A program made the position numbers and the translations under genes. Positions 26,832 through 44,919 of a DNA stretch of 64,000 nucleotides are shown here, one piece after another. Origin of the DNA: an uncultured Gammaproteobacteria bacterium (GTDB lineage Bacteria > Pseudomonadota > Gammaproteobacteria > UBA9214). The stretch is from positions 223,761 to 287,760 of the forward strand of contig CAVPAE010000007.1 of assembly GCA_963701455.1 (NCBI GenBank), given 5' to 3'. Numbering within the stretch: the first letter of the stretch is position 1; each line of letters begins with the position of its first letter. The notes below the pieces were generated by a model, which had not been told where the DNA came from, did not search any database, and saw nothing but the letters and a program-made list of their open reading frames with translations.

Positions 26832-26937
26832 CCTACAGCAAGAATTTTTGCAATGATCGGGTAAAGTCTACCCCGACAATCTCGCGACAGAGTGTCAATC
26901 AGCGGCCGAATCACGCGCCAGGCGTAACCCCGGACAC

Positions 26938-28553
26938 TCAGAAGTCAGCCCGGTAGCCCAGGTTAATAAAATAGCTGTTGCTCTCTTCAGAGCCATCAAC
27001 AATTTCGCGGTCCGAATATTCCCCCCCGATTTCGGCTTCCAGGCGCAGCCTGCGCTTGATCCGATAGTCCAGCCGCAGTGACGGGCGGTAGGTGATCTGG
27101 TCCGTGCCGTCATCCCGGTTATTGCTGTAATCCATTCTGAAGCGTGGGTTGACCCGAAATTCACTGGTGACGGGATATCGCGTATTTAAATTCAGGGAAT
27201 AGATATCCCTGTTGCCCGCATCGGAATAACGCAGACCTGCTATCGTAATATCACCCGGCTTTACCAGATTGCTTCCGACGAGTTGCAGGTTGTAAACAAA
27301 ATCGGTGCCTGTTCCATCCGTCGCCGCAACACCACCTGAAGCGCTGGTACCAGAAAGGTTAAATGCCGTGACATCACCGCTTACCTGCAGTTTTTCGGTT
27401 ATTGGATGCGACACGCCCAGGGTCGCAAGCTTGCTGGTTGCCGTGCGATCACGCGCCAGATCCTGAATTTCACTGGCTGCAAGGCTGTTCTGCAGCTCAT
27501 CGATTGAGCTGACAGCCTGGCCCACCAGCGCATTCCGGCTCGTAAGGATCGGACTCCTTCTGTAATCTGCGACCACGTTGACCGTGGTCTTGTCCGAGAA
27601 TGTCCAGTTCCCGAGCAGCTGCCCGATATTCAGTTCGTTGTAATGTATGTCGTAGTCGACGAGACTGAAAAACGAACGAGCGGCGTCAAAATATCTGAGC
27701 TCACCACCAACCGCACGACGATCTGTGATTCCATCCACCTGCTGCTCGATAACAAAGGCATTTGCATCCCACCCCTTCGCAAACCCTTCAGTCTCGAGAG
27801 TCAACCCATAGAAGTATCTGTCCGTACCTTCGAAAGCATCAGTCGATGATTCTACCGGGAATCCGCCAACCGCACTCACCGAGAACTTTTTGCCCAAAGG
27901 GACCCCCAGCAACAGGCCGTCAAAGCGCCCCAATACTCCTCCGGTACTGCGGGACTGTCGTCCGATTCGCATGGACATGTCGCTCTGTGTTGAGCTGGCA
28001 TCAAAGTACAGTCGAACTCACAGTGGTATCAGTGTTAGCACCGTCATCAATAAAGTCATGCAAATAGCCACCGGTAAAGCGGGCCTGTAGATTGTAGTCG
28101 CTACCGCGCAGCCGGGCAGTGACATCCATATTGCTGTCCAGAGATGACTGGGTCAGCGTCGTGAGTTCATTGTCATCATCAATATTGGTTGTATTCTCAT
28201 TACGCCGGTAGTACTGGGAAACTCCACCGAACACATCCCACTGCGACTCCGCTTCATTACGCGACTTGCTCCGGGTTGTGCCCAGTTTCTCCCTGGGCTG
28301 TTTTCTGGCAGTCATCAGGGCCGCAAAACGTTGTTTGACACGTTCAGCACCCTCTCCTTCCGGGTAACGCTCAAGATAAGTCCTGTATACCAGTTCTCGC
28401 CTGCGCCAGCTGGTCGTTGCGTTCACGGGCCAGTCCCAGGTATTCCAGGGAATCCTGGCTGTACTGGTTATCGGGCTGCTCCAGAATCTTGGTATATAGC
28501 CTGATTGCCCCGGCATAGTCCTTGTCGGTCATATTGTTACGCGCCTCCTGCAC
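26938..28553 (-). pseudogene. TPR-domain + outer-membrane beta-barrel protein, interrupted by at least 2 frameshifts (may merge with the upstream SPOR-like ORF)
   Basis: C-terminus ends ...GYRADF, an aromatic terminal residue typical of OM beta-barrels. Alternating beta-strand pattern throughout 26938-28516. A one-base shift near 28003-28020 joins ...SSTVL to FDASSTQSDMSMRIG.... A shift near 28385 joins ...LGLARERNDQLAQAR to RELVYRTYLERYPEG... (TPR). Confidence 0.55.
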
Positions 28554-29572
28554 CAGGGAAGCAAGTCGCTCCGGCGTGACAACATTGCCCGCAGCAACTT
28601 CACGCGGAACAACGACTGCAGACGCGTAGTCGCCTCTGGTTGGGCTGTTGTGCCCGCACCGGATCCGGACAGGTTACCGGCGAGCATGGATTCACCGGAA
28701 CGGGTCCTTTCTGCTACTGATGCTTTGGCAACCCAGGAATCCGGGTAATAGGCCTTGAGTTCTTCCCTGACAATATCTGCTTGCTGCACCTTCCTGAAAA
28801 ACCCGAATCGCAGCCGGTACCATGTCTTGCCGTCCTTGACAAAGGTGGTGGTGTAAACGCGATATGCCTGGGATTCACCAGGATCTGGCAAATCCATGAA
28901 TACTTCCGGATCAGGCAAATCATTTACCTCGAACGGCGTGACTGATGAGGCCAGATTAATAACATAAGGATAGAGCGTGGCAGTGGTCGCCGCCTCCACC
29001 GGGACTTCCGTATTGGCAGCAGTCGCTTCAGTCATGATCGCGACAGGTGTTGTCGAATCGCTATCAGGCCGGTTTCCCGGCCCCGCGTGAAGTACGTCTT
29101 CCACTGCAGACGCACCCGGATTTCCCCTGCTTTGCGGATGCTTTACAACTACATCGATGGTCCTGAAATCTCCTGAACGAGGTATCTCGAATTCCACCTC
29201 CTTCTGAAAGCGCAAGGTAATGCTTGTATTCGCGAATCCGGCGCCTTCGTAGGTCACGTCGTACAATGGCATATCTCTGTCCGGACTCCACTGTATCGTC
29301 TGCTCCCCCAGCAATGTATCCCCGGCAGAGCCGAGTGACGGGGCCGGTTCCACAAAGATGCGCAGCAGATCACCGGATCGTTCCGGCGCATGTGATTTGT
29401 AGCTCACCGGAATGGTAAGCCTGATATGGATAGTCGACTGATCCCGGCCAGGTGTGATATCGATGCTGTCGATAACATCAATGGCGGCCTGCGCTCCCGT
29501 AGTAACCGGCACACAACATATAACGCATAACAGCCGCGCGAACCTCGCCATGCCGTGAAATATATTTTTCAT
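28529..29572 (-). CDS. periplasmic protein with SPOR-like domain; 3' end uncertain (probable frameshift into TPR frame near 28640-28680)
   Basis: Signal peptide MKNIFHGMARFARLLCVICCVPVTTGAQA. SPOR-like segment KTWYRLRFGFFRKVQQADIVREELKAYYPDSWV. The alternative frame past 28680 reads protein-like (...VVVPREVAAGNVVTPERLASLVQEARNNMTDKDYAG...). Confidence 0.5.
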   Translation of the reverse strand: MKNIFHGMARFARLLCVICCVPVTTGAQAAIDVIDSIDITPGRDQSTIHIRLTIPVSYKSHAPERSGDLLRIFVEPAPSLGSAGDTLLGEQTIQWSPDRDMPLYDVTYEGAGFANTSITLRFQKEVEFEIPRSGDFRTIDVVVKHPQSRGNPGASAVEDVLHAGPGNRPDSDSTTPVAIMTEATAANTEVPVEAATTATLYPYVINLASSVTPFEVNDLPDPEVFMDLPDPGESQAYRVYTTTFVKDGKTWYRLRFGFFRKVQQADIVREELKAYYPDSWVAKASVAERTRSGESMLAGNLSGSGAGTTAQPEATTRLQSLFRVKLLRAMLSRRSDLLPWCRRRVTI

Positions 29573-30060
29573 TCGCTGACAGGGTCCACAACCGGTTGCT
29601 GCTGGACTTCCGGCGCAACCTCGTCCACATAAACCACGATACTGCGAGAATCCCTGCCCTGTTCCACCCAGAAATCGACACAACGATTGAAGAACAGGGT
29701 CAGATACGGACCACCTTCGATATCTCCCTCATAAACCACCTCGTCGAGCGGCAGGTTTTCATAGTCGAAGGGAACGAGAGTTTCCCGCTTGTGCAAGGCA
29801 TTCAGGTCATCCGCGCTGATCCCAAAAGGCCTGATCCTGATACGCAGTTCCTTGCCAGACTCATACGGGAAGTGGCTGTCATACCTTACCCGCGTTGTCA
29901 GACTGACCTGCACTGTCGTCACAGCATCGGTCTCGTACACATCCAGGGTATCGAGTATTTTCTTTCTGACCGGCTCGGAATCCACCAGCTGCGTGAATAG
30001 GAGCACGCCAAGCGCCAGCAAGATTCCGGCTCGTGCTTTTCGTCCAGGCATCTGCATCAC
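29569..30060 (-). CDS. secreted hypothetical protein (163 aa)
   Basis: Signal peptide (MMQMPGRKARAGILLALGVLLFT). Its stop overlaps the downstream start as ATGA at 29569-29572. Confidence 0.5.
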   Translation of the reverse strand: MMQMPGRKARAGILLALGVLLFTQLVDSEPVRKKILDTLDVYETDAVTTVQVSLTTRVRYDSHFPYESGKELRIRIRPFGISADDLNALHKRETLVPFDYENLPLDEVVYEGDIEGGPYLTLFFNRCVDFWVEQGRDSRSIVVYVDEVAPEVQQQPVVDPVSE

Positions 30061-30070
30061 TGCACCTCCG

Positions 30071-33000
30071 TCAGAAATCGCTACTGGTTGTACGGTGCTC
30101 AGGCCCGGGGCGACGGTCCTTGATCGTCGTCATGCTGCTGTCCGTATACATATGACAGCTTCCCGAACAGTCCCTCAACTCGCTGACACTGTAGGTCGTA
30201 TCGGGATTCTCGTATTTCTTGTGTGCGCTCTGCTTGAAATCATTCGCATGACACGCTGCACAATCCGGCACATACGCAGGTGCCGACCAGTTCACTACCT
30301 CACTGTTTGCCTGGTGACACGCAGTACAGAGAAGATTACTTCTGTGGTCTCCCGGATATGACGCCGAGGTATGCTGGAAATCCAGTGGCACCCAGTAAGA
30401 CGTCGTATGACATGCGTCGCACTGTAAACTGGTGACGAAGTGCCCGCCGGGCTTGCCGGTTGCCGTTGTACCGTTATGACAATTCGAGCATGAACCCGTG
30501 ACTTGGTCGTGATTAAAGCTGGCCGGCAGCCATGCGATAGTCGAATGGCATTCATCGCATTGCGCCGACGTGATGACATGTCCGGATGGCTTTCCGGTTG
30601 AGGTAACCCCGTTGTGGCAGGTAGTACATGTTCCGGGGGTCACATTGGCATGATCGAATACCGCCGGCAGCCAGGCGCTCGTGCTGTGACAGTCATCGCA
30701 GGTGTTGTTGCTGGCGATGTGGTTGACCGACTTGCCGGGCGCCGTGCTGCCATCGTGGCAGCTGAAGCAGGTCCCCAGCACGTCGGCATGGTCCACCCGG
30801 GTCACCGGTAGCCAGGCGCTCGTGCTGTGACAGTCATCGCACAGCGCCGTGGTCTGGATATGGGTACTGTTCTTGCCCGTGGCCGTGGTGCCGTCGTGGC
30901 AGCTCGCGCAGTTGCCGCTCACCGTGCTGTGATCGAAGGTCGCCGGTAGCCAGGCGCTCGTGCTGTGACAGTCATCGCAGGTGTTGTTGCTGGCGATGTG
31001 ATTGGCCGTCTTGCCGGGCGCCGTGCTGCCATCGTGGCAGCTGAAGCAGGTCCCCAGCACGTCGGCATGGTCCACCCGGGTCACCGGCAGCCAGCTACTG
31101 GTGCCGTGGCAGTCCTCGCACAACGCCGTGGTCTGGATGTGGGTCGGGTTCTTGCCCGTGGCCGTGGCACCGTCATGACAGCTCGCGCAGTTGCCGCTCA
31201 CCGTGCTGTGATCGAAGGTCGCCGGCAGCCAGGCACTCGTGCTGTGACAGTCATCGCAGGTGTTGTTGCTGGCGATGTGGTTGACCGACTTGCCGGGCGC
31301 CGTGCTGCCGTCGTGGCAGCTGAAGCAGGTCCCCAGCACGTCGGCATGGTCCACCCGGATCACCGGCAGCCAGCTACTGGTGCCGTGGCAGTCCTCGCAC
31401 AACGCCGTGGTCTGGATGTGGGTCGGGTTCTTGCCCGTGGCCGTGGCACCGTCATGACAGCTCGCGCAGTTGCCGCTCACCGTGCTGTGATCGAAGGTCG
31501 CCGGCAGCCAGGCACTCGTGCTGTGACAGTCATCGCAGGTGTTGTTGCTGGCGATGTGGTTGACCGACTTGCCGGGCGCCGTGCTGCCATCGTGGCAGCT
31601 GAAGCAGGTCCCCAGCACGTCGGCATGGTCCACCCGGGTCACCGGGATCCAGCTGCTGGTGCCGTGGCAGTCCTCGCACAGCGCCGTGGTCTGGATATGG
31701 GTACTGTTCTTGCCCGTGGCCGTGGTGCCGTCGTGGCAGCTCGCGCAGTTGCCGCTCACCGTGCTGTGATCGAAGGTCGCCGGTAGCCAGGCGCTCGTGC
31801 TGTGACAGTCATCGCAGGTGTTGTTGCTGGCGATGTGGTTGGCCGTCTTGCCGGGCGCCGTGCTGCCATCGTGGCAGCTGAAGCAGGTCCCCAGCACGTC
31901 GGCATGGTCCACCCGGGTCACCGGCAGCCAGCTACTGGTGCCGTGGCAGTCCTCGCACAACGCCGTGGTCTGGATGTGGGTCGGGTTCTTGCCCGTGGCC
32001 GTGGCACCGTCGTGACAGCTCGCGCAGTTGCCGCTCACCGTGCTGTGATCGAAGGTCGCCGGTAGCCAGGCGCTCGTGCTGTGACAGTCATCGCAGGTGT
32101 TGTTGCTGGCGATGTGATTGGCCGTCTTGCCGGGCGCCGTGCTGCCATCGTGGCAGCTGAAGCAGGTCCCCAGCACGTCGGCATGGTCCACCCGGGTCAC
32201 CGGCAGCCAGCTACTGGTGCCGTGGCAGTCCTCGCACAGCGCCGTGGTCTGGATATGGGTACTGTTCTTGCCCGTGGCCGTGGTGCCGTCGTGGCAGCTC
32301 GCGCAGTTGCCGCTCACCGTGCTGTGATCGAAGGTCGCCGGCAGCCAGGCGGTGGTGCTGTGACAGTCCTCGCAGGTCGCGGCACTGGGGATGTGGTTCG
32401 TACTCTTGCCGATGGCGGTGGCACCGTCGTGGCAGCTCACGCAGGTCCCCAGTACCTCGGCATGATCGACCTGGATCGCCGGCAGCCAGGCCGTCGTCTG
32501 GTGGCAGGCCTCGCAGATCGTCGTGGTCTGGATGTGGGTCGGATTCTTGCCGGTGGCCGCGGTGCCGTCGTGACAGCTCGCGCAGTTGCCGCTCACCGTG
32601 CTGTGATCGAAGGTCGCCGGTAGCCAGGCGCTCGTGCTGTGACAGTCATCGCAGGTGTTGTTGCTGGCGATGTGGTTCGCACTCTTGCCGATGGCGGTGG
32701 CACCGTCGTGGCAGCTCACGCAGGTCCCCAGCACCTCGGCATGATCGACCTGGATCGCCGGCAGCCAGGCCGTCGTCAGGTGGCAGGCCTCGCAGATCGT
32801 CGTGGTCTGGATGTGGGTACTGTTCTTGCCGGTGGCCGCGGTGCCGTCGTGGCAGCTCGCACAGTTACCGGTGACGTTGCTGTGGTCGAAGGTCGCCGGC
32901 AGCCAGGCGGTGGTGCTGTGACAATCCTCGCAGGTCGCGGCACTGGGGATGTGGTTCGTACTCTTGCCGATGGCGGTGGCACCGTCGTGGCAACTCACGC

Positions 33001-33808
33001 AGGTCCCCAGTACCTCGGCATGATCGACCTGGATCGCCGGCAGCCACGCCGTCGTCAGGTGGCAGGCCTCGCAGACCGTGCTGGTCTGGATGTGTGAGCG
33101 GCGCTTGCCCGTGGCAACGATGCCGTCATGGCAGCTCGAACAGGCACCAGTGATATTGGCATGGTCGAAACTCGCATTCGCCCAGGCGATGGTGGTATGG
33201 CAATCCTCGCAGGTATCGGCACTCGGAACGTGGTGATTCGACTTACCTGTGGCCGTAGCACCATCATGGCAACTTGAGCATGTAGCGGTAACATTACTGT
33301 GATCGAAGGTCGCAGTTGTCCAGGCAGTTGTGGTATGGCAGTCCTCGCAAGTATCGGCACTTGAGATATGATTGGTGGTCTTGCCGGTCGATGTTGATCC
33401 ATCATGACAAGTTGCGCAGGATCCAATAACTGCATCGTGACTCATGTTAGCCAGTGGTTTCCAGTACGCATCCGTATGACATTCTTCACAAACAAGGTTC
33501 GTCTGGATATGATCAGACGGCATCTTGTCTGCCGGCATCGAGCTGGCCTGGTTGTGACAAACCCCGCATTCAACCGGTGTTCCCTCAAATATTCCACGCA
33601 GGTGACAACTCGTACAGGGTGCATTTTTATGCGCGCCTTCAAGCGGGAATCCTGTAGAAAAATGATCAAACCCGGCATTGGTTCCGAGCGCCATCACACC
33701 ATGTGACAGCAAGAACAGGAAACAGACAAACAGGAACATAACAGTCGCAGGCCGGCGGATTTCCCTCGACCCGGCCATTGACATGGTGACTTGTTGTTTA
33801 GGCTTCAT
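30071..33808 (-). CDS. giant c-type cytochrome with about 50 heme-binding motifs (49 CxxCH + 1 CX3CH)
   Basis: Signal peptide ...FLFLLSHGVMA. My hand count gives 49 CxxCH plus CSGSCH near the C-terminus. About nine tandem 93-aa tetraheme modules, with one extra His per heme (FDHS, THIQ, VDHA, NHIA). Start taken at ATG 33808 (MKPKQQ); ORF ATG 33847 is an alternative. Confidence 0.85.
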   Translation of the reverse strand: MKPKQQVTMSMAGSREIRRPATVMFLFVCFLFLLSHGVMALGTNAGFDHFSTGFPLEGAHKNAPCTSCHLRGIFEGTPVECGVCHNQASSMPADKMPSDHIQTNLVCEECHTDAYWKPLANMSHDAVIGSCATCHDGSTSTGKTTNHISSADTCEDCHTTTAWTTATFDHSNVTATCSSCHDGATATGKSNHHVPSADTCEDCHTTIAWANASFDHANITGACSSCHDGIVATGKRRSHIQTSTVCEACHLTTAWLPAIQVDHAEVLGTCVSCHDGATAIGKSTNHIPSAATCEDCHSTTAWLPATFDHSNVTGNCASCHDGTAATGKNSTHIQTTTICEACHLTTAWLPAIQVDHAEVLGTCVSCHDGATAIGKSANHIASNNTCDDCHSTSAWLPATFDHSTVSGNCASCHDGTAATGKNPTHIQTTTICEACHQTTAWLPAIQVDHAEVLGTCVSCHDGATAIGKSTNHIPSAATCEDCHSTTAWLPATFDHSTVSGNCASCHDGTTATGKNSTHIQTTALCEDCHGTSSWLPVTRVDHADVLGTCFSCHDGSTAPGKTANHIASNNTCDDCHSTSAWLPATFDHSTVSGNCASCHDGATATGKNPTHIQTTALCEDCHGTSSWLPVTRVDHADVLGTCFSCHDGSTAPGKTANHIASNNTCDDCHSTSAWLPATFDHSTVSGNCASCHDGTTATGKNSTHIQTTALCEDCHGTSSWIPVTRVDHADVLGTCFSCHDGSTAPGKSVNHIASNNTCDDCHSTSAWLPATFDHSTVSGNCASCHDGATATGKNPTHIQTTALCEDCHGTSSWLPVIRVDHADVLGTCFSCHDGSTAPGKSVNHIASNNTCDDCHSTSAWLPATFDHSTVSGNCASCHDGATATGKNPTHIQTTALCEDCHGTSSWLPVTRVDHADVLGTCFSCHDGSTAPGKTANHIASNNTCDDCHSTSAWLPATFDHSTVSGNCASCHDGTTATGKNSTHIQTTALCDDCHSTSAWLPVTRVDHADVLGTCFSCHDGSTAPGKSVNHIASNNTCDDCHSTSAWLPAVFDHANVTPGTCTTCHNGVTSTGKPSGHVITSAQCDECHSTIAWLPASFNHDQVTGSCSNCHNGTTATGKPGGHFVTSLQCDACHTTSYWVPLDFQHTSASYPGDHRSNLLCTACHQANSEVVNWSAPAYVPDCAACHANDFKQSAHKKYENPDTTYSVSELRDCSGSCHMYTDSSMTTIKDRRPGPEHRTTSSDF
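30500..33050. repeat. tandem array of about nine 279-bp units (93-aa tetraheme modules) inside the 50-heme cytochrome gene, several copies near-identical at DNA level
   Basis: Identical antisense ORF peptides recur at 31260, 31539 and 31818 (279-bp spacing). 30965 and 32081 share peptide text 1116 bp (4 x 279) apart. This is coding, not a CRISPR array. Confidence 0.85.
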
Positions 33809-33861
33809 ATGCTGTTCTGTTTCCTGAATTAGCAATACCCGGAACACCGGAAATAGCGCCC

Positions 33862-35445
33862 TTACCTGATTTCCACCACGTCAAACGATTCCGTCGTGTG
33901 GCAACGATCGCAATACTTCCCAAACTCTCCGTCATGCACATCCTCCTGGCGATGACAGGAAACACAGGTACCTGGCAGCCTGATTTCTCCTGTTATTTCC
34001 TCAACGTGACAGGACAGACAATCAATATCCTGATGCGCACCATCCAGTTCGTAATTCGTGTGAACGTTGTGTTCAAACTCCCACAAAGACCAGTCATTCG
34101 GGTTATGACACGACTCACAGCGCGGGCCCAAGCGGCGTTCATGCACATCATCCGGCTGATGACAAACATTGCATTCACGTGCCGCCTGTTTGTATGCCGA
34201 TGTCAGATGGCACTCCTCGCACGGGGTAACCGCATGCAAACCGAGAAGCGGGAAATCGGTCATATCGTGTTCGAAACGCACCTTCCCGCCCCAGCCATCC
34301 TCGTCATGGCATTTCTCACAACGCTTGCCCTCCTGGCCCTCGTGCACATCATCCGCTCCATGACAACTGAAACATTCCGTTGCAAGTTTTTCCTCGTAAA
34401 CCTCACCCCTGTGACAGGATGAGCAACTGGCTTCCTGATGCTTCCCGCGCAATGGAAACTCCGTTTCCCGATCATGCTCGTACTTCACCTTGTCCCAGCC
34501 ACGCGTGCTGTGGCAGGCCTGGCATTTATTCCCGTATCGGCCAGCGTGCTTGTCGTCACCGCGATGACAGTCGATACATTCCGTGCCCAGTGCCGTGTCA
34601 TACAGTTTCCCCACATGGCAGACATCGCACTTCACTTCCCGGTGACTTCCGGAAAGCGAATATCCCGTATCACGATCATGATCGAACCGGGAGCGGTCCC
34701 AGCCTGCCTCTGAATGACAGTCTTTGCATTTCTGCCCGTAACGACCGGCATGCACATCATTCAGCCTGTGGCAGGTATGGCATTCCCCGGGGATATCCTT
34801 GTATTTGTGATTGACGTGGCAACTGTCACAGGCCAGTTCTGCATGCTTTTCCCGAAGCACGAAATCCGTGTCGTCGTGGTTGAATTCCTGGCTGGTCCAA
34901 CTGCGCTCGGCATGGCAATCCGCACACTGCTCACCAAGCCTGCCTGCATGAATGTCGTCTCCCTCATGGCATGAGACGCACTCCTGCGGCGCATCGCGGA
35001 ATTTTTTCCCTTCAGCGTGGCAGGCTGCACAACGCGTCGCAATATGCGCACCCTTTAGCAAGTAATCCGTTTCATCATGTGCAAAGGTTTCAACATCCAG
35101 CTGGACTACGTCTGCATCGCGACCCTTGTGATCGCTATGGCAATGACTGCACTCTGCATTCCTTGCCACTCCCAACCCGTGGAAACCTGTCTGCTGCCGA
35201 ATATCTGCATCGACTTCCTCGTGACAGTCCCGGCACAGCATGCTTTGGCTCTCCTTGCTGAAGGGCTTGTGGCACTTTTCACACTCTTCCTCGTATTTCA
35301 TGTGCCCCTCTATCACCTGCCCCGGTTTGACCAGTGATTCGATTCCTGCAAACACAGTCGAACCGAAGCACATAGCCGCCACAAAGAGGGTGGCGGCAAT
35401 ACAAATCCGGTACCGTTTCACAGTGACTTTTCTTGCATGGGCCAT
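33862..35445 (-). CDS. 21-heme c-type cytochrome (7 x tri-heme repeat)
   Basis: Signal peptide MAHARKVTVKRYRICIAATLFVAAMCFGSTVFA. 21 CxxCH motifs in a repeating CxxCH-x~15-CxxCH-xxDDxHxGxxGxxCxxCH-x4-W-x5-FxH pattern. Its start shares one nucleotide with the upstream stop (TGATG at 35443-35447). Confidence 0.85.
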   Translation of the reverse strand: MAHARKVTVKRYRICIAATLFVAAMCFGSTVFAGIESLVKPGQVIEGHMKYEEECEKCHKPFSKESQSMLCRDCHEEVDADIRQQTGFHGLGVARNAECSHCHSDHKGRDADVVQLDVETFAHDETDYLLKGAHIATRCAACHAEGKKFRDAPQECVSCHEGDDIHAGRLGEQCADCHAERSWTSQEFNHDDTDFVLREKHAELACDSCHVNHKYKDIPGECHTCHRLNDVHAGRYGQKCKDCHSEAGWDRSRFDHDRDTGYSLSGSHREVKCDVCHVGKLYDTALGTECIDCHRGDDKHAGRYGNKCQACHSTRGWDKVKYEHDRETEFPLRGKHQEASCSSCHRGEVYEEKLATECFSCHGADDVHEGQEGKRCEKCHDEDGWGGKVRFEHDMTDFPLLGLHAVTPCEECHLTSAYKQAARECNVCHQPDDVHERRLGPRCESCHNPNDWSLWEFEHNVHTNYELDGAHQDIDCLSCHVEEITGEIRLPGTCVSCHRQEDVHDGEFGKYCDRCHTTESFDVVEIR

Positions 35446-36413
35446 CAGTACATGTGCACGGCATACACATGGACAAGACCGGCAATCAAAAGCATGATGA
35501 AGAGAGGCAGATGGAGAACGTGCCACATGGAAAACAACCGCTCGAAGAATGAAAAGCCGGCCACCTTGCGGACCGTATACAGGTATGTGCGCAGGTAATA
35601 CCCTGCCTTGCGGTAATAATAGCGGCGTTGCTCTCGAGTCAGTCTCTCGCGAACAATCGGTGTCCTGAAGAATCGGCGCAACTCCAGCAGGGATACCAGC
35701 AGGCACCAGCGTGATCTGATGTTGATCACCAGCATACTGACCAGGCAAGAGAGAAAGCCGTTTTGGGTTGCCACCGCCTTGTCTTCAATACGCTGCAGCC
35801 GGACCTTCATTCCCGGCATTTCCTTGAAGACGGGTCCGAGTTCCGCCATGGCCATTGCTGTATCGCTGCCCAGATCCTCAAGATCTGCTTTTCGGCCATA
35901 CAGACCGTAGTGGACTTTTGAATATATAAATCTGCCGATCAGGCCACTGCCGGCAACCAGCAGCATACTGAACAGGGCGACATTCCCGTTTATGGAACCG
36001 AGCTGGAAGTTACAATGCAGGAGAATACAAACAGGCCCCAGGATACCCAGCAACATGTGCCCCCTGAACCAGTGGCGCACCGGTCCGAAGCCCTGTGCCC
36101 AGCGCGCATGCTTGCGTAGCGGATACAGCATGAGCAACAGCATCATCGTGCCTCCTGTTATACCAAGGGCATAACCGATACCTAGCTCCGGTGTGAGATA
36201 AAGGTAACTGCCATACTTCCATCCGCAATACACAAGCAGCAGGACCAACAGGTGGAAGACCGGTAACTCCGGAACCCGGGAAGACCTCTCACGTCCCTCA
36301 TTATCCCGTTTGATAATGGGTTCATTTGCAGGGTCCTGAGGGTATCCCGCGACGCCTGCGGCTTGAGTTATCGAGTTCTTGTCAATATCAAAAACAGTCT
36401 GTACTTCACTCAT
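35445..36413 (-). CDS. polytopic membrane protein with conserved His in TM helices; putative b-type cytochrome / quinol-interacting subunit
   Basis: About 6 TM helices. His residues sit in TM1 (FHLL), TM3 (HWFRGHMLLG...LLHCNF) and TM6 (MWHVLHLP...LVHVYAVHMY). Translationally coupled to the 21-heme gene. Start at MSEVQ (36413); ATG 36503 is an alternative. Confidence 0.5.
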   Translation of the reverse strand: MSEVQTVFDIDKNSITQAAGVAGYPQDPANEPIIKRDNEGRERSSRVPELPVFHLLVLLLVYCGWKYGSYLYLTPELGIGYALGITGGTMMLLLMLYPLRKHARWAQGFGPVRHWFRGHMLLGILGPVCILLHCNFQLGSINGNVALFSMLLVAGSGLIGRFIYSKVHYGLYGRKADLEDLGSDTAMAMAELGPVFKEMPGMKVRLQRIEDKAVATQNGFLSCLVSMLVINIRSRWCLLVSLLELRRFFRTPIVRERLTREQRRYYYRKAGYYLRTYLYTVRKVAGFSFFERLFSMWHVLHLPLFIMLLIAGLVHVYAVHMY

Positions 36414-36766
36414 TACCGCCCCCGTTCCCCAGGATGTACAAACACCGCAATATCTGTACCTGCATATCGGACCTGCAGCGAAAGTTCTCAACCAGCCAGG
36501 CAACCCAGAAATACGTATCCGGAGGGGCTCTCATGCTTGAGAAATTCCATAACCCACTGCTTTTACTAGTGAATACACTGCACCACAGAACATAAACACA
36601 GAATCACACAAATGTGACGGACTTCACTATTTGGGAGGATATTCCCATTTGTTGATATACTATGCAACATTCAATTACAGGATTGCCGATGCAGTCACAC
36701 AACAGAAAAGCTTTCAGAAAACATAATTCACATGCGAGCACAGAACCCGCGTACAGGTAGACACCG

Positions 36767-38068
36767 ATGACCGATACCGCACTTTATTTCTATCTGACCC
36801 CGATGCTGTTCATCTGGGGCATTTACTATGGATTTCGCACCAGGAGGCATCGCCGCGCCACCCGCTTGCGCGATGACGCACAAAAGTCCGGTCTTCTGGC
36901 TCCGGCATCACTCCACCCCGTGATAGATTCATGCCGCTGCCTGGGTTGTCGGTCCTGCGTAAGCGCCTGCCCGGAAAAATCAGTACTGGGAATTATTGAT
37001 AGCAAATCCGTGCTGGTCAGCCCTGCCAACTGCATCGGGCACGGCGCATGCAAAACCGCCTGCCCGATGAACGCAATCACACTGGTGTTTGGCACATCCG
37101 AACGCGGCGTCGATATTCCACTGGTTGCTCCCGACTACGAGACCAATGTTCCCGGTCTTTTTATTGCCGGAGAACTGGGCGGGATGGGGCTGATTCGCAA
37201 CGCCGTTGAACAGGGCCGTCAGGCAATGGCATCCATCATCGAGCACTGTCGGAAGGGAAACAGGCAGGAACTGGATGTCGTAATCGTCGGCGCCGGACCC
37301 GCGGGTCTTTCAGCCAGCCTGGCCGCACAGGAAAGCGGCCTGCGCTACGCAACACTCGAACAGGATTCTCTCGGGGGAACGGTATCCCATTTCCCGCGAG
37401 GAAAAATTGTCATGACAGCTCCTGTAAAGCTACCCCAGGTCGGCACAGTTAAATTCAGGGAGATATCCAAGGAAGCACTGCTGGAATTCTGGGAGGACGT
37501 CATCAGGAAGACAGGCGTGCAGATCATATTCAGGGAACGCGTTGAAGCCATCACGCCTCTTGCAGGAGGACTAGAAGTCAGGACTCCCGGGAATGTCTAT
37601 CGCACCAAATGCGTCCTGCTCGCGATTGGCCGGCGCGGCACACCGCGCAAGCTGGATGTGCCTGGCGAAGAATCAACAAAAGTCGTCTACCGGCTGATAG
37701 ATCCAGAGCAATACCGCAATCAGAAAGTACTGGTTGTCGGGGGTGGAGACAGCGCCCTGGAGGCCGCGATAAGTATTGCCGAGCAGCCCGGCACGGATGT
37801 CAGCCTGTCTTATCGCAGCGCTGCATTTTCCCGCGCCAAGGAAAAGAACCGGCAGAAGATTGATGACTTGAACAATTCAGGCCGCTTGAAAGTCTTCCTG
37901 AATTCCACGGTCAGCGAAATACATGAGAACAGGGTAGAAATAGACCAGCAAGGCAACATGATTGATATCGGGAATGATGCCGTGATCGTCTGTGCCGGTG
38001 GCATTTTACCTACACCCTTCCTGAAAGAAATCGGCGTCGAGGTGGAAACAAAATATGGCACGCAGTAA
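36767..38068 (+). CDS. membrane-anchored 4Fe-4S ferredoxin-domain + FAD/NAD(P)-binding pyridine nucleotide-disulfide oxidoreductase-like protein
   Basis: N-terminal TM helix. Two Cys clusters (CRCLGCRSCVSACP and CIGHGACKTACP). Two Rossmann GxGxxG motifs (VVIVGAGPAG, VLVVGGGDSA). Confidence 0.7.
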   Translation: MTDTALYFYLTPMLFIWGIYYGFRTRRHRRATRLRDDAQKSGLLAPASLHPVIDSCRCLGCRSCVSACPEKSVLGIIDSKSVLVSPANCIGHGACKTACPMNAITLVFGTSERGVDIPLVAPDYETNVPGLFIAGELGGMGLIRNAVEQGRQAMASIIEHCRKGNRQELDVVIVGAGPAGLSASLAAQESGLRYATLEQDSLGGTVSHFPRGKIVMTAPVKLPQVGTVKFREISKEALLEFWEDVIRKTGVQIIFRERVEAITPLAGGLEVRTPGNVYRTKCVLLAIGRRGTPRKLDVPGEESTKVVYRLIDPEQYRNQKVLVVGGGDSALEAAISIAEQPGTDVSLSYRSAAFSRAKEKNRQKIDDLNNSGRLKVFLNSTVSEIHENRVEIDQQGNMIDIGNDAVIVCAGGILPTPFLKEIGVEVETKYGTQ

Positions 38069-40145
38069 GACGATTACCGGATTCTGCAGCCACGGACCGT
38101 TATTACGCTCCTGTTCAGCCATTGCTGCATGTCTGCTGTTTGCCTGCCTCTTCGCACCATCTGCCGCCGCCACCGGGGAGTTTGATGAAATACGCGCCGC
38201 CATCCGGGTGCGTGACTTTGGAAAGGCCATCCCCCTGCTTGAAACCCTGGCAAGCTCGGGCAACCCCGACGCCCAGTATCAACTTGCCGCCTTGTATCGC
38301 GCAGGCTCCGGCGTTGCAAAGGATCACGAAACCGCATTTTACTGGCTGGACAAGGCCGCACACCGGAATCACAGGCAGGCCCAGTACAACCTGGGCGTTA
38401 TGTATGAATATGGATGGGGAACGCTGGCAAGCGCGGCAGCTGCAGCCGACTGGTATGAAAAGGCCGCCGCACAGGGCCACCCGATGGCGCAGGAAAAGCT
38501 TAACGAGAGTGATATAGCCGCACGCCGCACAAGAGATAATACGCGGCCTGGCGAAGCACCCGACCCGGACCTGTTACTGCGGCGGGCCGTGACAAGGGGC
38601 GATGCGCGGTCGGCCAGTGAAGCCATCAAGGCCGGCGCCAATGTGGATGCAACTGACAAATACGGCAGAACCGCGCTCATTGATGCCGCCGAACAGGGAT
38701 TTACTGAAATCGTCGAGCTGTTGATAAGCAATAATGCCGACATCAACCACGAGGATGCCTATCGCAACAGCGCACTGCTCCTGGCAACCGGCAATGGCCA
38801 TTCCGATACGGTCAGGAAACTGCTCACTGCCAATGCAGACAGCAACGCCACGGACACAAATGGCAACACCCCGTTGATGATCGCGAGTGGAAGGAATGAT
38901 GTAGAGATTGTCCGGGCATTGATAGCACAGGGCGCACGCCTTTACGGGAAAAACACCACGGGTGATTCTGCCGCTGATATCGCGGCCCGCAAGCGGCATG
39001 CTGAGATACTGAAAATCCTGCAGGCGCGTGGCGCCAATCCTGAAAAGCATTTTGCCCAGAAGAAGGCGACGATCGCCAAACGCCTTGCCATGCAGAATCC
39101 TGACCCGGCATCCGGATCCGGTGGCAAGGAATCATCACAGCCATATGCAGGCTGGTCAGCGCTGATGGAGTCTGCCTGGCGCGGCCAGGAAGAAATCGTC
39201 CGGGAACTGCTGGACCGGGGCGTCGATATCAATAGCAGGGATGATCAGGGCCACACTGCCCTGACGCGCGCAGCCAGCAAGGGGAACAGCAAGATTGTGC
39301 AGCTGTTACTGGAAGCCGGCGCCGATACCGGTGTCACCCGTGACGATGGCATGACCTTGCTCATGCTGGGCACTGCATCGGGTGATGCCGACACGGTCAC
39401 GTTGCTGCTTGCAAGGGAGCGCAATATCAACGCAAGGGATACCGATGGTTGCACTGCCCTCTGCTACTCGGTCCGCAACGGTGACACGGATATTGCCAGC
39501 CTGCTGTTGCAGCATGGTGCCGACAGCAACCTGGCTCTGAATGACGGCAGGACGGTCCTGATGCTGGCGGCTGAAATGGACACACCGGAGATACTGGCTC
39601 TGCTGCTCGCAAACGCACCCGCGGTCAACCAGCCGGACAAGACCGGCCTGACTGCCTTGTCATACGCGGTTATCAAGGGACACGAAAAGAATGCGCGCAT
39701 GCTGCTGGAGCATGGCGCGAAGCCAAACATCAGCGACTCGAAAAAGCGCACCCCGCTTACGCTTGCCGCCACGGGTAAAAACACAAATATTGTCGACCTG
39801 CTGATCAAGCACCGGGCTGACATCGCAACAAGCACCAGCGATGGTAATACGCCGCTTATTCTTGCAGCCAATTCCGGGAATACTGCCATCGCCGGCCGTC
39901 TGATAAAAGCAGGAGCAGATATCAATGTGCGCAACAATAATGGAAACACAGCCCTGATGCTTGCTGCCGCAAACAATCATGTCGACATCGTCAGGATCCT
40001 GCTGGAAACCGGCGCCAGGGCGGGAATCAGGAACAACAATCGCAAAAGCGCCAGCGACCTGGCCGAGGCCTCGGGAAATACGGAAACACTTGCCGTCCTT
40101 GAAAAGCACCGCAGTAGCGGGCTATGGTCATCCAGCTGGTTCTGA
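38055..40145 (+). CDS. secreted Sel1-repeat + ankyrin-repeat (about 15 ANK) protein
   Basis: Signal peptide. Sel1-like units (AQYQLAALYRAGSGVAKD, AQYNLGVMYEYGWG). Then repeated G.TALM.AA..G...IV..LL..GA..N units through the C-terminus. Overlaps the upstream gene by 14 nt. Confidence 0.8.
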   Translation: MARSKTITGFCSHGPLLRSCSAIAACLLFACLFAPSAAATGEFDEIRAAIRVRDFGKAIPLLETLASSGNPDAQYQLAALYRAGSGVAKDHETAFYWLDKAAHRNHRQAQYNLGVMYEYGWGTLASAAAAADWYEKAAAQGHPMAQEKLNESDIAARRTRDNTRPGEAPDPDLLLRRAVTRGDARSASEAIKAGANVDATDKYGRTALIDAAEQGFTEIVELLISNNADINHEDAYRNSALLLATGNGHSDTVRKLLTANADSNATDTNGNTPLMIASGRNDVEIVRALIAQGARLYGKNTTGDSAADIAARKRHAEILKILQARGANPEKHFAQKKATIAKRLAMQNPDPASGSGGKESSQPYAGWSALMESAWRGQEEIVRELLDRGVDINSRDDQGHTALTRAASKGNSKIVQLLLEAGADTGVTRDDGMTLLMLGTASGDADTVTLLLARERNINARDTDGCTALCYSVRNGDTDIASLLLQHGADSNLALNDGRTVLMLAAEMDTPEILALLLANAPAVNQPDKTGLTALSYAVIKGHEKNARMLLEHGAKPNISDSKKRTPLTLAATGKNTNIVDLLIKHRADIATSTSDGNTPLILAANSGNTAIAGRLIKAGADINVRNNNGNTALMLAAANNHVDIVRILLETGARAGIRNNNRKSASDLAEASGNTETLAVLEKHRSSGLWSSSWF

Positions 40146-40247
40146 ATCCCGCATCAAGTCACACCGCTTGTTCCCGACGGATTACGTTCCGGAGACGAAC
40201 ATGAAAAGCCTTGCTGACCCGGACTGTTGCAGGTTCATGAAACGGAA

Positions 40248-41318
40248 TTATGCTGGCTGAAGCTGCGCGATCGGCATGGAAGCGCGAATTGTTGTCCCTT
40301 CTCCATCTCCACTGGACATGGATATTTTCCCATCGACGAGTTCAATTCGTTCCCTCATACCACCGAGCCCCGCTCCCCTGAGAGAATCGTCTACAGACAG
40401 AGCGTCCTCAAGACTGAACCCGACCCCGTTATCCTGCACGGTCAATTCCAGAAAGTCGTTTATCCTGTGCAGACTGATGAGGACCTGATCTGCCTTGCTG
40501 TGCCGGGCCACATTGTTAAGTGCTTCCTGCACTACCCTGTAGACCACGACCTTCAGATTGTCCGCTATCTCGTCATCAGTTATTACAATGTCGCTGTGAA
40601 CCTGGATACCCGGATTGGCATCCTGAAAATCGCGCCGTAACCAGGTAAGTGTCGCCGAAAGGCCCAGATCATCCAGCATGGATGGCCGCAATCGCATGTA
40701 GATATTACGTACTTCCTCAATAGTCTCCTGAACAACAGGAACAAGAATCCTCGACATTTCAGCAGGGTTCAATGCTTCGTCAACCGATTCGTGCAGGGCG
40801 TGCTCAATCCTGAACTTCATCGCAACCAGTGTCTGGCTTACATTGTCATGGAGATCCTTCGCGATCCTGCGTCTTTCATTTTCCTGTGCGGCCAGCAATT
40901 GCGCCGAGAGCAGGCGCAGTTCTTTATCGGATTTACGTAACGCCTCTTCTGTTTGAGCCTGTTCTGCAATTGCATTTTCAAGTTTCTTGTTGGTATCAAG
41001 CAATTCCCGGGTACGATCCTGCACTCGATGTTCAAGATTGTCGTATGCCCGGGTCAAGGCCTCTCTTGCCTGATCGGCGTCGTTCATACTGACAAAAGCC
41101 AACCTGGCTGGAATTATCAGCGCGACCGTTGTGAAAATCAGTGTAGTGACAACATATTCCCAGCGCTCGTATAACGGCTCTGGGTGATAAAACTCGTAAA
41201 TGTGTGGTACCACCAGATCCTCAAGGTAAAACTCCCAGAAAGCACACAGCAACGTCACTCCTGCCAGGATCAGCAGAAACAGCAACATGAGGCCTCCAAG
41301 GCGACTTCTCACTGCCAC
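40248..41318 (-). CDS. membrane sensor histidine kinase, HisKA_3 (NarX/DesK-like) type
   Basis: Two N-terminal TM helices. H-box LHDNVSQTL after LAAQENERRRIAKD. HATPase_c at the C-terminus. No response regulator is adjacent. Confidence 0.8.
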   Translation of the reverse strand: MAVRSRLGGLMLLFLLILAGVTLLCAFWEFYLEDLVVPHIYEFYHPEPLYERWEYVVTTLIFTTVALIIPARLAFVSMNDADQAREALTRAYDNLEHRVQDRTRELLDTNKKLENAIAEQAQTEEALRKSDKELRLLSAQLLAAQENERRRIAKDLHDNVSQTLVAMKFRIEHALHESVDEALNPAEMSRILVPVVQETIEEVRNIYMRLRPSMLDDLGLSATLTWLRRDFQDANPGIQVHSDIVITDDEIADNLKVVVYRVVQEALNNVARHSKADQVLISLHRINDFLELTVQDNGVGFSLEDALSVDDSLRGAGLGGMRERIELVDGKISMSSGDGEGTTIRASMPIAQLQPA

Positions 41319-41590
41319 TCAACCCCTGCCTGCCGGTAAACCCCATTACCATCAAGAACCATCTGCAGCCCCCCTCCCTCGAATTGCTCAACTTTTCAGA
41401 GTGAAAACAGACAATACCATTCATGCGAATGCGAATCAATCTCATTAATCATCAGTTACCAGGAATGCCATCCAGATAATTTGAAAATGCATATCCAGGG
41501 AAGTGGATTTGTGAATCAGGGCATGGAGCTGCCACCAGCGTATTGATAACGGCGCCTGACGGTCAGTTCAGGAATTGCCCCACTCCGGTT

Positions 41591-42073
41591 TCATGGCACC
41601 AGCCAGACGGGCTCACGGTGACCAGAGAGGTCGACGAGATACCCACCTCTTGAGAGAACCCGCTGACCGGGTGTGATACCGGCGCGGAGATACAGGGGCA
41701 GATAGGCGGTGAGTGTTGACGAGTGGTTGAGCAGGTCCAGGAGGTAGTCGCGGGAAATGTAGAGACCCATGTGTTTCGCGCCATCGGCAAAAGCGAGGCA
41801 GGCAAAATAGGCCAGCGCCTGATGCCGTTCTTCCCGGATCGGTATACCTCTTGCCCGGGTCCAGGCGCGGAAGCGCTGCAGCGACGGGTCGGGCTCACCG
41901 GGAAGCGCGGAGAGGTGAACCACCGGTGTCCGTGCCCGCAAGGCGTCGGGCACATCTACCCACGTCGCACCGAGCAGGGTCGGTGACAGAAATACCGGCG
42001 CCTCCCCGTTACTGAAACCCGGTTCTGCCGCCATGCGTCGGACACCAGCTGCCCTTCTCGGCAAGTGCTCCAT
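41591..42073 (-). CDS. truncated paralog (C-terminal ~150 aa) of the cytochrome-c/periplasmic-binding-protein fusion at 42986-44707; possible gene remnant
   Basis: WTRARGIPIREERHQALAYFACLAFADGAKHMGLYISRDYL...GGYLVDLSGHREPVWLV aligns with WLKVRGIPATNLAIQSRMYFLGWMLPDAIKHMRGEFYRDYF...GCYIVQLSGDENPELIKV in the larger gene. Confidence 0.5.
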   Translation of the reverse strand: MEHLPRRAAGVRRMAAEPGFSNGEAPVFLSPTLLGATWVDVPDALRARTPVVHLSALPGEPDPSLQRFRAWTRARGIPIREERHQALAYFACLAFADGAKHMGLYISRDYLLDLLNHSSTLTAYLPLYLRAGITPGQRVLSRGGYLVDLSGHREPVWLVP

Positions 42074-42233: not shown

Positions 42234-42917
42234 TCAAAGTAAAGAAGGATCTCTCCGGGGATCGGTCTGTCTTGTCAATGCCTGGTATTCACGCACCAGG
42301 TCACCGGCACTCGCAAAACCCTCCATGCGAACCCAGCCTGTTTGCGGTGCAGCATGCATGAATGTCAACGGTATGTGATTCATCTTGTCGCGCCGGTATG
42401 CATCAAAAGCTTTCAGCACCGCCACGATGTCTTCACGATCCCCGGTCAGAAACGTCCAGCCTGTGCTGGCCTGGAAACGCTGCGCATATTCCCGAAGTTT
42501 TGCCGGAGTATCATGCTCAGGATCGATGGTAACTGAGATCATTCGAACATTATCCGCTTCAGGACCAAGGGCCTTCCGGGTCTGGGTAAAGCTGGCACTC
42601 AGGACCGGACAGATAGTTGTGCACGTGGTAAATATAAAATTCAGCATCACCGGCTCATTACCCTCCAGCATGTCGTGCAGGGAAACCTTCCTGCCGTCCT
42701 GATCGGTCAGTACGACATCGGGCACCTGGTATTCCTGTTCCTTGCGGACATAGCCCTTTTGCTGCAGCATCTGCCTGTGCTGCGAATGATCAACTCCATG
42801 CTGGTGCATATGGTGGGCAGCATCTCCGTCATCCAGGGCATGACCGGACGATGCCATGCCGAACGTAACCAGCAGGCCCATCATCCTGCCCGCAAACCTT
42901 ATTTTGTTATTCAGCAT
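42234..42917 (-). CDS. SCO1/SenC-family thioredoxin-like copper chaperone
   Basis: Membrane anchor, His-rich stretch (HHMHQHGVDHSQH), CxxxCP motif (FTTCTTICP), DPEHDT motif. Start at MLNNKIRF (42917). Confidence 0.8.
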   Translation of the reverse strand: MLNNKIRFAGRMMGLLVTFGMASSGHALDDGDAAHHMHQHGVDHSQHRQMLQQKGYVRKEQEYQVPDVVLTDQDGRKVSLHDMLEGNEPVMLNFIFTTCTTICPVLSASFTQTRKALGPEADNVRMISVTIDPEHDTPAKLREYAQRFQASTGWTFLTGDREDIVAVLKAFDAYRRDKMNHIPLTFMHAAPQTGWVRMEGFASAGDLVREYQALTRQTDPRRDPSLL

Positions 42918-42985
42918 GTCGTATTCTCCTTTTGTAATAACGTCCCTGCTTGTTGATATTCCCCGCGGCAGAGCCACAGCCGCTT

Positions 42986-44707
42986 CTAGTTGACGACCCA
43001 GTCACTCACTTTTATCAGCTCCGGATTTTCATCACCGCTGAGTTGCACGATATAACAACCTTTTGATGCATAGCGCTGACCAGGGCCAAAACTCAGCCGG
43101 GGAAACACGGCAATTGCTGCATCCTGATCTGTCATCATGTCGAAAGATTCCAGGAAATAGTCCCGGTAGAACTCGCCACGCATATGTTTTATGGCGTCCG
43201 GCAACATCCAGCCAAGAAAATACATCCTCGACTGGATTGCCAGATTGGTAGCCGGAATACCCCGCACCTTGAGCCATTGCTGCAGCGCCATCTGCCTGTA
43301 TTTATTTTCTTCGGGAAGGCTTTCCGGATAAGTCAGATAGAGAATGTTGCGCATCCCGGCGGGAACAAGATCCAGCCTCCCTTCCAGCAGGCTCGCAGAG
43401 GCAAACAGCATGGCGTCCCTCTCCTGATTCACAACCTGGCTACGCAGAGCTTCGGTGAGATCTTCCGCAGCAAGCCACAGCAGCACCACTGGCGCAGCTT
43501 GTTCATCCTCTCCTCGCCACCATGTCGCCGGCAGGGCACCGTTATCTTCGGGCTGCCGGAACTCCGGGACACCTCCTCCATATTCAGCCCAGGCATCCTG
43601 GAACCCTCGCGCAAGCATCTCCCCCTCGCTCCCCGGCCGGTACACCTGAATGACCCGGGTATCCGGCCCGACCTTCCCGGATGCCTGCAGAAACTTGGCC
43701 GCGGTTTCTCCCTCCTGGTAGAGCCCCCTGGAGAAATACAAGGTATACCAGTCGGATTTTGAAACTACCGGCTGATCAGTCACCGGGAAGATATTGGGTA
43801 TTTCATTGTCCTCGCAGAAGTCATGAATTGGCGCCCATCTGCCGGAACCAATCCCGCCAAGCAGGGCAAACACAGGTCGCAACCGGTAATAGGATTCAAG
43901 CTGCTCGCGCCAGGTTTCAGGCGGGCCGGTCAACTCCCACACATCGAGTGCGAGCTTGCGATAGGAACCGTACTGTTCGGTCTTGTAGAAAGGGCCCTGA
44001 CTGGCCCGGCGCAGATGAGGCCGGGTCTGGGTATTGCGCGCATCGATGTGCGCCTGCAGCACCGAAAGCATGGCATCACGATCAGTAGGGGACACACCAT
44101 CGGTCACCACGGTTGCAAAGCGCAGCGTCTCCCCGTCGAGCCCCGGAGCGTTGTTGACGGAAAGGTTTTTCAGGTAATGGATGAGGATCTCCATATCCCC
44201 CTCCTCCAGATCATAACGGGGCATTGCCTGGCTCAGCACCCTACCGTCCGCAGCCACACCGGTGCGCATAGCCCTGGCCAGGGTTTCTGCCGTATAGGGC
44301 GGACGGGCATCAACAGCCCGATTCTGGGACGGCAGCGACCAGCGCTCCGCAGCGCCCGGCCCGTGACCTTCGGCGGCAGGACTCCAGGCACCGGTACGCC
44401 GTCTCGGGACAAACAATTCCTTGCCATTGATCGGCCAGGTGACGATCGAACCCTCCACCGAGCCCAGTCCGCTGCGCTGGTGGCAGTTAATACAGGTAAA
44501 CATACGTCCATCCACGAATATATCCCCTGCGATGAGGGCCTGTACCGGTTCCCCGTCGGAGAGAATTCCTTCCCGGTAGAGACGCTCTCCCAACTGTAAG
44601 GTCGCATCCTCCTGAAGGCCCGCAGCCACAGCTGGACCCGGAACAAACGCGGTCCCTCCAACTACGCCGAGGAACAATAAACACCGGGTTATGTACCGTG
44701 GCATCAT
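42986..44707 (-). CDS. fusion of mono-heme cytochrome c domain (CINCH) with a type-I periplasmic-binding-protein (LivK-like) domain
   Basis: Signal peptide. A single CxxCH with a downstream Met-rich cytochrome c fold region. The C-terminal ~350 aa has the PBP-like alternating alpha/beta pattern. Confidence 0.65.
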   Translation of the reverse strand: MMPRYITRCLLFLGVVGGTAFVPGPAVAAGLQEDATLQLGERLYREGILSDGEPVQALIAGDIFVDGRMFTCINCHQRSGLGSVEGSIVTWPINGKELFVPRRRTGAWSPAAEGHGPGAAERWSLPSQNRAVDARPPYTAETLARAMRTGVAADGRVLSQAMPRYDLEEGDMEILIHYLKNLSVNNAPGLDGETLRFATVVTDGVSPTDRDAMLSVLQAHIDARNTQTRPHLRRASQGPFYKTEQYGSYRKLALDVWELTGPPETWREQLESYYRLRPVFALLGGIGSGRWAPIHDFCEDNEIPNIFPVTDQPVVSKSDWYTLYFSRGLYQEGETAAKFLQASGKVGPDTRVIQVYRPGSEGEMLARGFQDAWAEYGGGVPEFRQPEDNGALPATWWRGEDEQAAPVVLLWLAAEDLTEALRSQVVNQERDAMLFASASLLEGRLDLVPAGMRNILYLTYPESLPEENKYRQMALQQWLKVRGIPATNLAIQSRMYFLGWMLPDAIKHMRGEFYRDYFLESFDMMTDQDAAIAVFPRLSFGPGQRYASKGCYIVQLSGDENPELIKVSDWVVN

Positions 44708-44742
44708 TAATCGCCTGAGCAGTTACCTGTATTCTAGGAGTC

Positions 44743-44908: not shown

Positions 44909-44919
44909 ATTCATTATCG

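Follow-up and report, generated by a model that had tools for sequence, protein, structure and literature searches.

A tandem array of 279-bp tetraheme units in a PCC3 cytochrome gene, probably expanded and reshuffled by recombination

The window studied here is a 64,000-nucleotide stretch of a contig from an uncultured gammaproteobacterium (CAVPAE010000007.1 of assembly GCA_963701455.1). On its reverse strand, at 30071..33847, lies a multiheme cytochrome c gene whose product is predicted, from its Pfam matches, heme motifs and cluster context, to be the extracellular cytochrome of a PCC3 porin-cytochrome cluster. The gene carries a tandem array of 279-bp units, each coding for four heme sites. 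We consider it likely, with good confidence, that this is a genuine in-frame array, that it has grown from about two to at least nine units and that it has been reshuffled by recombination. PCC3 cytochromes are candidate conduits for long-range electron transfer in iron-oxidising and related bacteria, and the locus bears on the origin of their heme-number variation, through a four-heme, 279-bp unit that appears to be gained, lost and shuffled. Published PCC3 extracellular cytochromes have a median of 34 hemes and up to 63, low ratios of residues to hemes and internal repeats (PMC5566968); in Gallionellaceae their heme number varies from 10 to 35, and the models are reported to be long and mostly linear (Hoover et al. 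2023, PMC10734462). Neither the gene family nor its repetitiveness at the protein level is therefore new. The literature on multiheme cytochrome repeats holds only protein-level remarks and the concept of a "grafting and pruning of modules", and where it could be searched we found no account of near-identity of units in DNA, of unit reshuffling between near-identical strains or of systematic contig breakage. What the locus adds is evidence that tetraheme units turn over by recombination between near-identical strains, together with a likely bias of heme counts in short-read metagenome-assembled genomes (MAGs).

The cytochrome is 1258 residues long when read from a GTG at 33847 and 1245 residues from an ATG at 33808, and has a signal-like hydrophobic segment at its N-terminus. 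An earlier note on this DNA, made from the sequence alone, had called it a 50-heme gene, and the count agrees: 49 CxxCH motifs and one CX3CH (CSGSCH, near the C-terminus), spaced by 23-24 residues. This amounts to about 25 residues per heme over the whole protein and 23.25 within the array. Pfam matches above cut-off comprise Cytochrome_C7, Cytochrom_c3_2, Paired_CXXCH_1 and MtrC/MtrF II-IV (PF14522 at 207.6 bits against a cut-off of 24.8, PF14537 at 176.3 and PF09699 at 136.5), placing the protein in the cytochrome c7/c3/paired-CXXCH group. In searches with the cytochrome, full-length identity to any relative stayed at or below 50%, and a sequence search of the PDB gave nothing closer than E=1e-5.

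Tandem Repeats Finder (TRF) detected a 279-bp period at 30651-33138, with 8.9 copies, 91% matches, zero indels and a score of 3558, and a nested half-period of 138/141 bp inside it. A repeat search returned 9 copies at a spacing of exactly 279 bp, confirming the tandem repeats that the earlier note had placed within the gene. When the protein was written in rows of 93 residues, residues 137-1159 fell into eleven tetraheme units, each made of two related di-heme modules of 46/47 residues. Every 279-bp unit encodes four CxxCH motifs and four distal His; the resulting eight His per 93 residues do not vary between units and hardly vary across 40 homologues, a pattern suggesting that every heme of the array is bis-His ligated.

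The units are not uniform in their divergence (all coordinates on the reverse strand). Six young units at 30650..32323 (residues 509-1066) are 91-99% identical to each other in DNA, and their variant blocks form a mosaic. Three older units of a second subtype follow at 32324..33160 (residues 230-508), 86-91% identical among themselves and 71-85% identical to the young ones. The array is bounded by two diverged units, both less than 55% identical to it. The 5' one, at 33161..33439 (residues 137-229), retains both di-heme modules at 44-48% DNA identity to array units; the 3' one, at 30371..30649 (residues 1067-1159), is orthologous to units in two related contigs, L008 (85%) and L035 (97%). No two array units are identical, and each is exactly 279 bp long. 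The earlier note had seen antisense-frame peptides that match letter for letter at 31260, 31539 and 31818 and a repeat at 30965 and 32081. In DNA the units are not exact copies: those starting at the first three positions differ at 7-16 of 279 nucleotides and the latter pair at 12 of 279. The note's inference of several hundred bp of essentially identical DNA, repeated at least five to six times, is overstated, the longest exact repeat being 229 bp and occurring twice only. We rejected the antisense open reading frames (ORFs) at 30965-31786, 32081-32623 and 32639-33097 (forward strand) as genes; they are stop-free antisense frames of a GC-rich repeat and recur with the array.

The six young units differ at 29 sites, of which 15 are synonymous (chance expectation 22%, p=4e-4). 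Their Cys and His heme ligands are all the same and there are no indels; pairwise, nonsynonymous divergence (dN) is 0.00-0.05 and synonymous divergence (dS) 0.03-0.27. The synonymous bias, the invariant ligands and the absence of indels argue that the differences between units are not sequencing or assembly errors, and the array units are under purifying selection. Two pairs of variant blocks, a/b and X/Y, are combined in each of the four possible ways within the set of young units, which requires recombination or gene conversion, or else cross-talk between units during assembly.

This last possibility belongs to a wider alternative, that the array exists but the number or order of its units in the window is wrong, through collapsed, over-expanded or mixed units. 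We judge it improbable. In its favour, exact repeats of 229 bp (31081=31360) and 223 bp (30900=32016), with two copies each only, are accompanied by others of 173 and 164 bp, and 584 of the array's 127-mers are non-unique; a neighbouring porin-like gene has three frameshifts, and the mosaic haplotypes themselves are a possible product of cross-unit polishing. Against an artefact, the units are all different and every 231-mer of the array is unique within the window; all units measure exactly 279 bp, and the 3.8-kb ORF and its 50 heme motifs are intact. Nor is the synonymous enrichment expected from errors. The same contig resolves a 394-bp exact tandem repeat in another gene, encoding PKD domains, and the independent contig L035 aligns colinearly with 3.78 kb of the window, shows no gap the size of a unit and has an array that is no shorter. 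We therefore argue, from the distinct units, the intact ORF, the synonymous bias and this colinearity, that the window array as assembled is essentially right.

Among the relatives, the prediction that such an array would be hard to assemble was borne out for the family. Fourteen of 16 related contigs end at or inside the array, also in keeping with the artefact alternative, and only L008 and L034, with two units each, cross it. Contigs that end in the array from its 5' side are L009, L026, L027, L028, L029, L030 and L031. From the other side, L033 (154 kb) starts 724 bp before the cytochrome stop codon, L036, L037, L038 and L040 about 620-640 bp and L039 about 500 bp before it. Since assemblies so often break at the array, short-read MAGs are likely to give truncated or biased heme counts and presence/absence calls for such genes, and long reads are needed before heme number is linked to ecology.

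The closest complete orthologue of the gene is in L008, which is syntenic with window positions 26936-42040 at 78-82% nucleotide identity. Its cytochrome has the same N- and C-terminal parts and 2.2 copies of the unit, with 23 CxxCH motifs and one CX3CH. L034 (67 kb), an independent contig colinear with L008 at 84.6% identity, has the same 24-heme architecture, indicating that the low copy number of this clade is not a product of collapse. Thus two core units and 24 hemes in L008 and L034 stand against nine array units and 50 hemes in the window, and copy number has changed in at least one of the two lineages. The two core units are 99% identical to each other within L008 and 93% within L034, while the pairs differ between the genomes; copies within a genome being more alike than orthologues, the core units of this clade have undergone concerted evolution.

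The core units of the window share 84-86% identity with those of L008, a level equal to that of the orthologous flanking unit (85%). Between young units of the window and L008 units dS is 0.43-0.63, and in the non-repeat flank it is 0.50, compared with 0.03-0.27 within the young units; these therefore multiplied or were homogenised after the split from L008. The recent expansion proposed in the earlier note is supported to this extent, although the event was not very recent, since the young units carry many synonymous differences. The three older units, at dS 0.73-1.13 to the L008 units, exceed the flank value. This excess is what might be seen if the array were ancient and stable, its units all old and kept similar through gene conversion, with the shorter orthologues arising by deletion or collapsed assembly. 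Homogenisation within L008 and L034, and the retention of the two-unit state across 15% divergence, would also fit such a history. We nevertheless regard it as very unlikely, given that the two independent assemblies crossing the array agree on two core units, that array-type units number 2 in one clade and at least 9 in the other, and that L035, counted over an equal distance from the 3' anchor, exceeds the window by at least one array-type unit.

L035 is a 3.9-kb contig that begins inside the array and lacks the 5' end of the gene. Its unique 3' flank, compared over 864 nucleotides, is 97.9% identical to that of the window, and its last diverged unit 97%. Array units in corresponding positions reach only 79-94% identity, and several in L035 match a neighbouring position better. 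With the same settings, TRF counted 9.9 copies in L035, whose array is cut by the contig end, and 8.9 in the window, and the first 135 nucleotides of L035 are array-type where the window already has its diverged 5' unit; L035 thus has at least one unit more than the window. With 24 hemes in L008 and L034 against 50 here, and at least 9.9 units in L035 beside flanks 97.9% identical, the expectation that heme number may differ between strains is supported. L027, from the same sample as L035, reaches into the array from its 5' end; units 323 and 509 of this contig share 94% identity with one another but only 84-86% with window units. We tried to read L027 and L035 as one allele, and their 280-bp overlap is 97.5% identical in that register against 91-92.5% in other registers, which is not conclusive; if joined, they might make an allele of 13 array units.

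Unit-sized change is also seen elsewhere in the family. The proteins P0101 and P0198 (52 hemes) are 99.3% identical to P0199 and P0200 (58 hemes) except for a clean indel of 161 residues, which equals one repeat period and six hemes. Arrays of 279/282 bp occur in L003, L017, L022 and L024 as well. In L003, a MAG contig, a PCC3-linked cytochrome at 13887-16184 has 8.2 copies of a 282-bp unit (88% matches) with a higher-order period of 847 bp; this independent large array in a distant lineage is apparently frameshifted, lying in two overlapping ORFs.

We propose that an ancestral array of about two core units, with the 24 hemes still seen in the L008/L034 clade, would have given rise to the at least 9 units and 50 hemes of the window lineage, units being gained and lost by unequal homologous recombination between them. 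Recombination or gene conversion would continually reshuffle and partly homogenise the units, and copy number and unit order would come to differ even where the flanks are about 98% identical. The units have stretches of 120-229 bp in common, which suffices for RecA-dependent exchange; such stretches may have allowed unequal exchange of this kind between sister chromosomes, or slipped realignment during replication. As the unit is 93 codons, each gain or loss is in frame and adds or removes four hemes. In the MtrCAB chain, 20 hemes span about 18.5 nm. By analogy, one unit would contribute about 3.7 nm, which puts the whole 50-heme protein at about 45 nm, and it may serve as an extracellular or periplasm-spanning conduit whose reach scales with unit number.

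How often the array changes length is a separate matter. In the most dynamic case it would be a contingency locus, with frequent length change inside a clonal population and wires of differing length as a form of bet-hedging. Copy number and unit order do differ between relatives with about 98%-identical flanks, alleles elsewhere in the family that are 99.3% identical differ by one unit-sized indel, and the identity tracts would suffice for RecA-dependent exchange. The individual units, however, are long-lived, with dS of 0.03-0.27 under purifying selection, most family members are fixed in length across many samples, and the differences were seen only between relatives, the exact sequences of three window proteins not being found in the contig collection. 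We therefore think a contingency locus quite improbable. Another reading, which we put forward tentatively and as less than an even chance, is an actively recombining, length-polymorphic "molecular ruler", in which strains differ by multiples of four hemes and published PCC3 counts are biased towards short or diverged alleles; heme numbers may then be 50 here and at least 54, possibly 66, in relatives. If this were true, electron-transfer reach would be tuned by unit gain and loss, and the PCC3 heme counts of MAG surveys (10-35) would lean towards short or diverged alleles, homogeneous arrays breaking short-read assemblies.

Several observations weigh against an array that has grown and been reshuffled as we propose. 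L035 and L027 carry single-base indels; from these and from their record names they are apparently long-read contigs, whose repeat consensus could be partly chimeric. The mosaic of variant blocks in the window could partly stem from polishing or assembly cross-talk between units, and the copy number given for the window is that of the assembly. The frameshifts in the porin-like gene may mean that the conduit is non-functional in this host, or may be local assembly errors. An AlphaFold2 model of four units, built with a 41-sequence alignment, was of low confidence (pLDDT 61.7, pTM 0.33), and Foldseek found no match for it in the PDB; for this reason the wire geometry given above rests on the literature. 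Finally, 62 hemes are constant across the genera Sulfuricella, Sulfurirhabdus and Sulfurimicrobium, and a length of 1276 residues is constant in at least 12 cluster members. Since most members keep their heme number across many assemblies, and even genera, high variability is not general to the family; it belongs to the homogeneous arrays.

Assignment of the cytochrome to PCC3 draws on its neighbours, which lie on the same strand. Directly upstream, at 33862..35445, is a periplasmic multiheme cytochrome with 21 CxxCH motifs, a count kept in 13 related loci; its likely start is an ATG at 35445 that overlaps the stop codon of the next gene. That gene, at 35445..36413, encodes a 322-residue PCC3 inner-membrane protein bearing WX3HX13H and SGXXG motifs on hydrophobic segments. 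Such proteins are described as having about 300 residues and five transmembrane segments (TM), with SGXXG on TM4 and WX3HX13H on TM3 and TM5 (He et al. 2017, PMC5566968). Here the hydrophobic segments are 47-65, 77-95, 118-138, 141-163 and 299-317; WFRGH-x13-H starts at residue 115 (segment 118-138), SGLIG at 156 (segment 141-163) and WHVLH-x13-H at 297 (segment 299-317). The inner-membrane protein, the adjacent 21-heme cytochrome (about 21-27 hemes expected) and the repetitive, heme-rich cytochrome with few residues per heme all fit PCC3, and the 50-heme protein is the predicted extracellular cytochrome of the cluster. In most of 25 related loci, fetched by means of the inner-membrane protein, this protein is followed by a 21-heme cytochrome (24 hemes in three loci) and then by one of 13-35 hemes. 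The inner-membrane protein is at most 50% identical to that of any GTDB species representative, the best being gammaproteobacterial MAGs, and the host has no close cultured relative.

Directly downstream of the 50-heme cytochrome, a conserved protein of 163 residues with no assigned function (29569..30060, reverse strand) is syntenic in all relatives examined. It is followed by the porin-like gene (from 26938 to 29572 or 29683, reverse strand), in which SPOR-like and TPR regions are joined to a C-terminal part with weak beta-barrel matches (KdgM and OMP_b-brl_3 in the C-terminal third, sub-threshold only). In L008, L033, L034 and L036 this gene is a single ORF of 882-885 residues; in the window a 4-bp deletion (~28625) and 1-bp insertions (~28393 and ~28013), none at an obvious homopolymer, leave it as three ORFs. 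It is either a recent pseudogene or the site of local assembly errors. General long-read indel noise is not supported as the cause, as about 8 kb of syntenic neighbourhood has no frame-breaking indel in an ORF relative to L008; the sole exception is an ambiguous 155-bp difference in an ankyrin-repeat gene (~38456-38620), probably a difference in repeat number or alignment. In P0058 and P0116, the closest full-length homologues of the cytochrome in the protein database, a SPOR-like N-terminal domain is fused to the multiheme cytochrome itself, so that its presence in the downstream porin-like gene here represents a domain rearrangement within the cluster.

Divergent from the PCC3 operon, at 36767-40145 (forward strand), are a 433-residue oxidoreductase with Fer4 and pyridine-nucleotide-disulfide oxidoreductase domains and a 696-residue ankyrin/Sel1-repeat protein. 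Both genes are kept in position in L026, L028, L029 and L034, the loci that reach far enough upstream; in L027 the ankyrin gene is split, and in L030 and L031 the contig stops within it. The pair might belong to this PCC3 subtype as accessory genes that have gone unrecognised.

We compared the cytochrome with known systems built from repeated modules. The decaheme cytochromes MtrA/DmsE (TIGR03508) are alike in the spacing of heme motifs and in forming a heme wire through or beyond a porin. The NCBIfam model TIGR03508 scores 243 bits on the cytochrome, above its cut-off of 192, summed from 10 partial matches to the repeated modules, the best covering query residues 73-266 and profile positions 32-222 of 258. 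We rejected the cytochrome as an MtrA/DmsE orthologue, as it has 50 hemes in 1258 residues compared with 10 in about 330 and the matches are partial, not end to end. Among surface proteins, alpha C and Rib of group B Streptococcus and SasG/Aap of staphylococci consist of near-identical in-frame repeats of a few hundred bp, one module each, and recombination between repeats alters the length of an extended extracellular rod; their genes are notoriously hard to assemble. Those repeats mostly exceed 99% identity, function in adhesion or antigenic variation and are not known to bind a cofactor, whereas the units of the window are 91-99% identical and each needs four hemes.

The dodecaheme "nanowire" GSU1996 of Geobacter sulfurreducens (cited in PMC11492766) is likewise a linear chain of repeated small bis-His modules, and probably stems from module duplication and concatenation. 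It differs in having four triheme c7 domains with 12 hemes in all, where the present protein has about 24 di-heme modules and 50 hemes, and in repeats that are not known to be near-identical in DNA. In gene order the locus matches the published PCC3 clusters (PMC5566968, PMC10734462), with which it shares the inner-membrane protein of about five hydrophobic segments, one SGXXG and two WX3HX13H motifs, the 21-heme periplasmic cytochrome and the many-heme, internally repeated extracellular cytochrome with few residues per heme and a composition rich in Thr, Ser, Ala and Gly. It is unlike them in its porin-like gene, which has SPOR-like and TPR parts and is frameshifted, and in its host, an uncultured lineage whose inner-membrane protein is no more than 50% identical to those of GTDB representatives.

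The window holds a second repeat locus that is hard to assemble. The PKD gene at 58174-60264 (reverse strand) encodes a secreted protein with five PKD domains, from an array at 58365-59730 in which TRF found 4.9 copies of a 279-bp period at 97%; two of the units are identical over 394 bp. Its C-terminus comprises a Gly-run, then a hydrophobic segment and a basic tail matching the JDVT-CTERM sorting domain (NF033191, E=1.4e-9). The earlier note had remarked that this gene shares the period of the heme array, and it does. The match is coincidental: a relationship between the arrays was rejected, as blastn gave only chance matches of 12-27 nucleotides (E about 1 or worse), and the period is shared because the PKD domain and the tetraheme unit, although unrelated, both happen to be 93 residues long.

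Elsewhere in the window, a 1726-residue ORF at 51890-57070 (reverse strand) has a GC content at third codon positions of 0.73 and no Pfam match at E<=0.001. A copper-related stretch at 42234-50540 (reverse strand), partly syntenic in L028, encodes a SCO1/SenC protein, a periplasmic-binding-like protein, a subtilase with a MopE-type copper-binding motif and two multicopper-oxidase-like proteins, one of them fused to Big_9/cadherin domains. This neighbourhood may point to metal oxidation.

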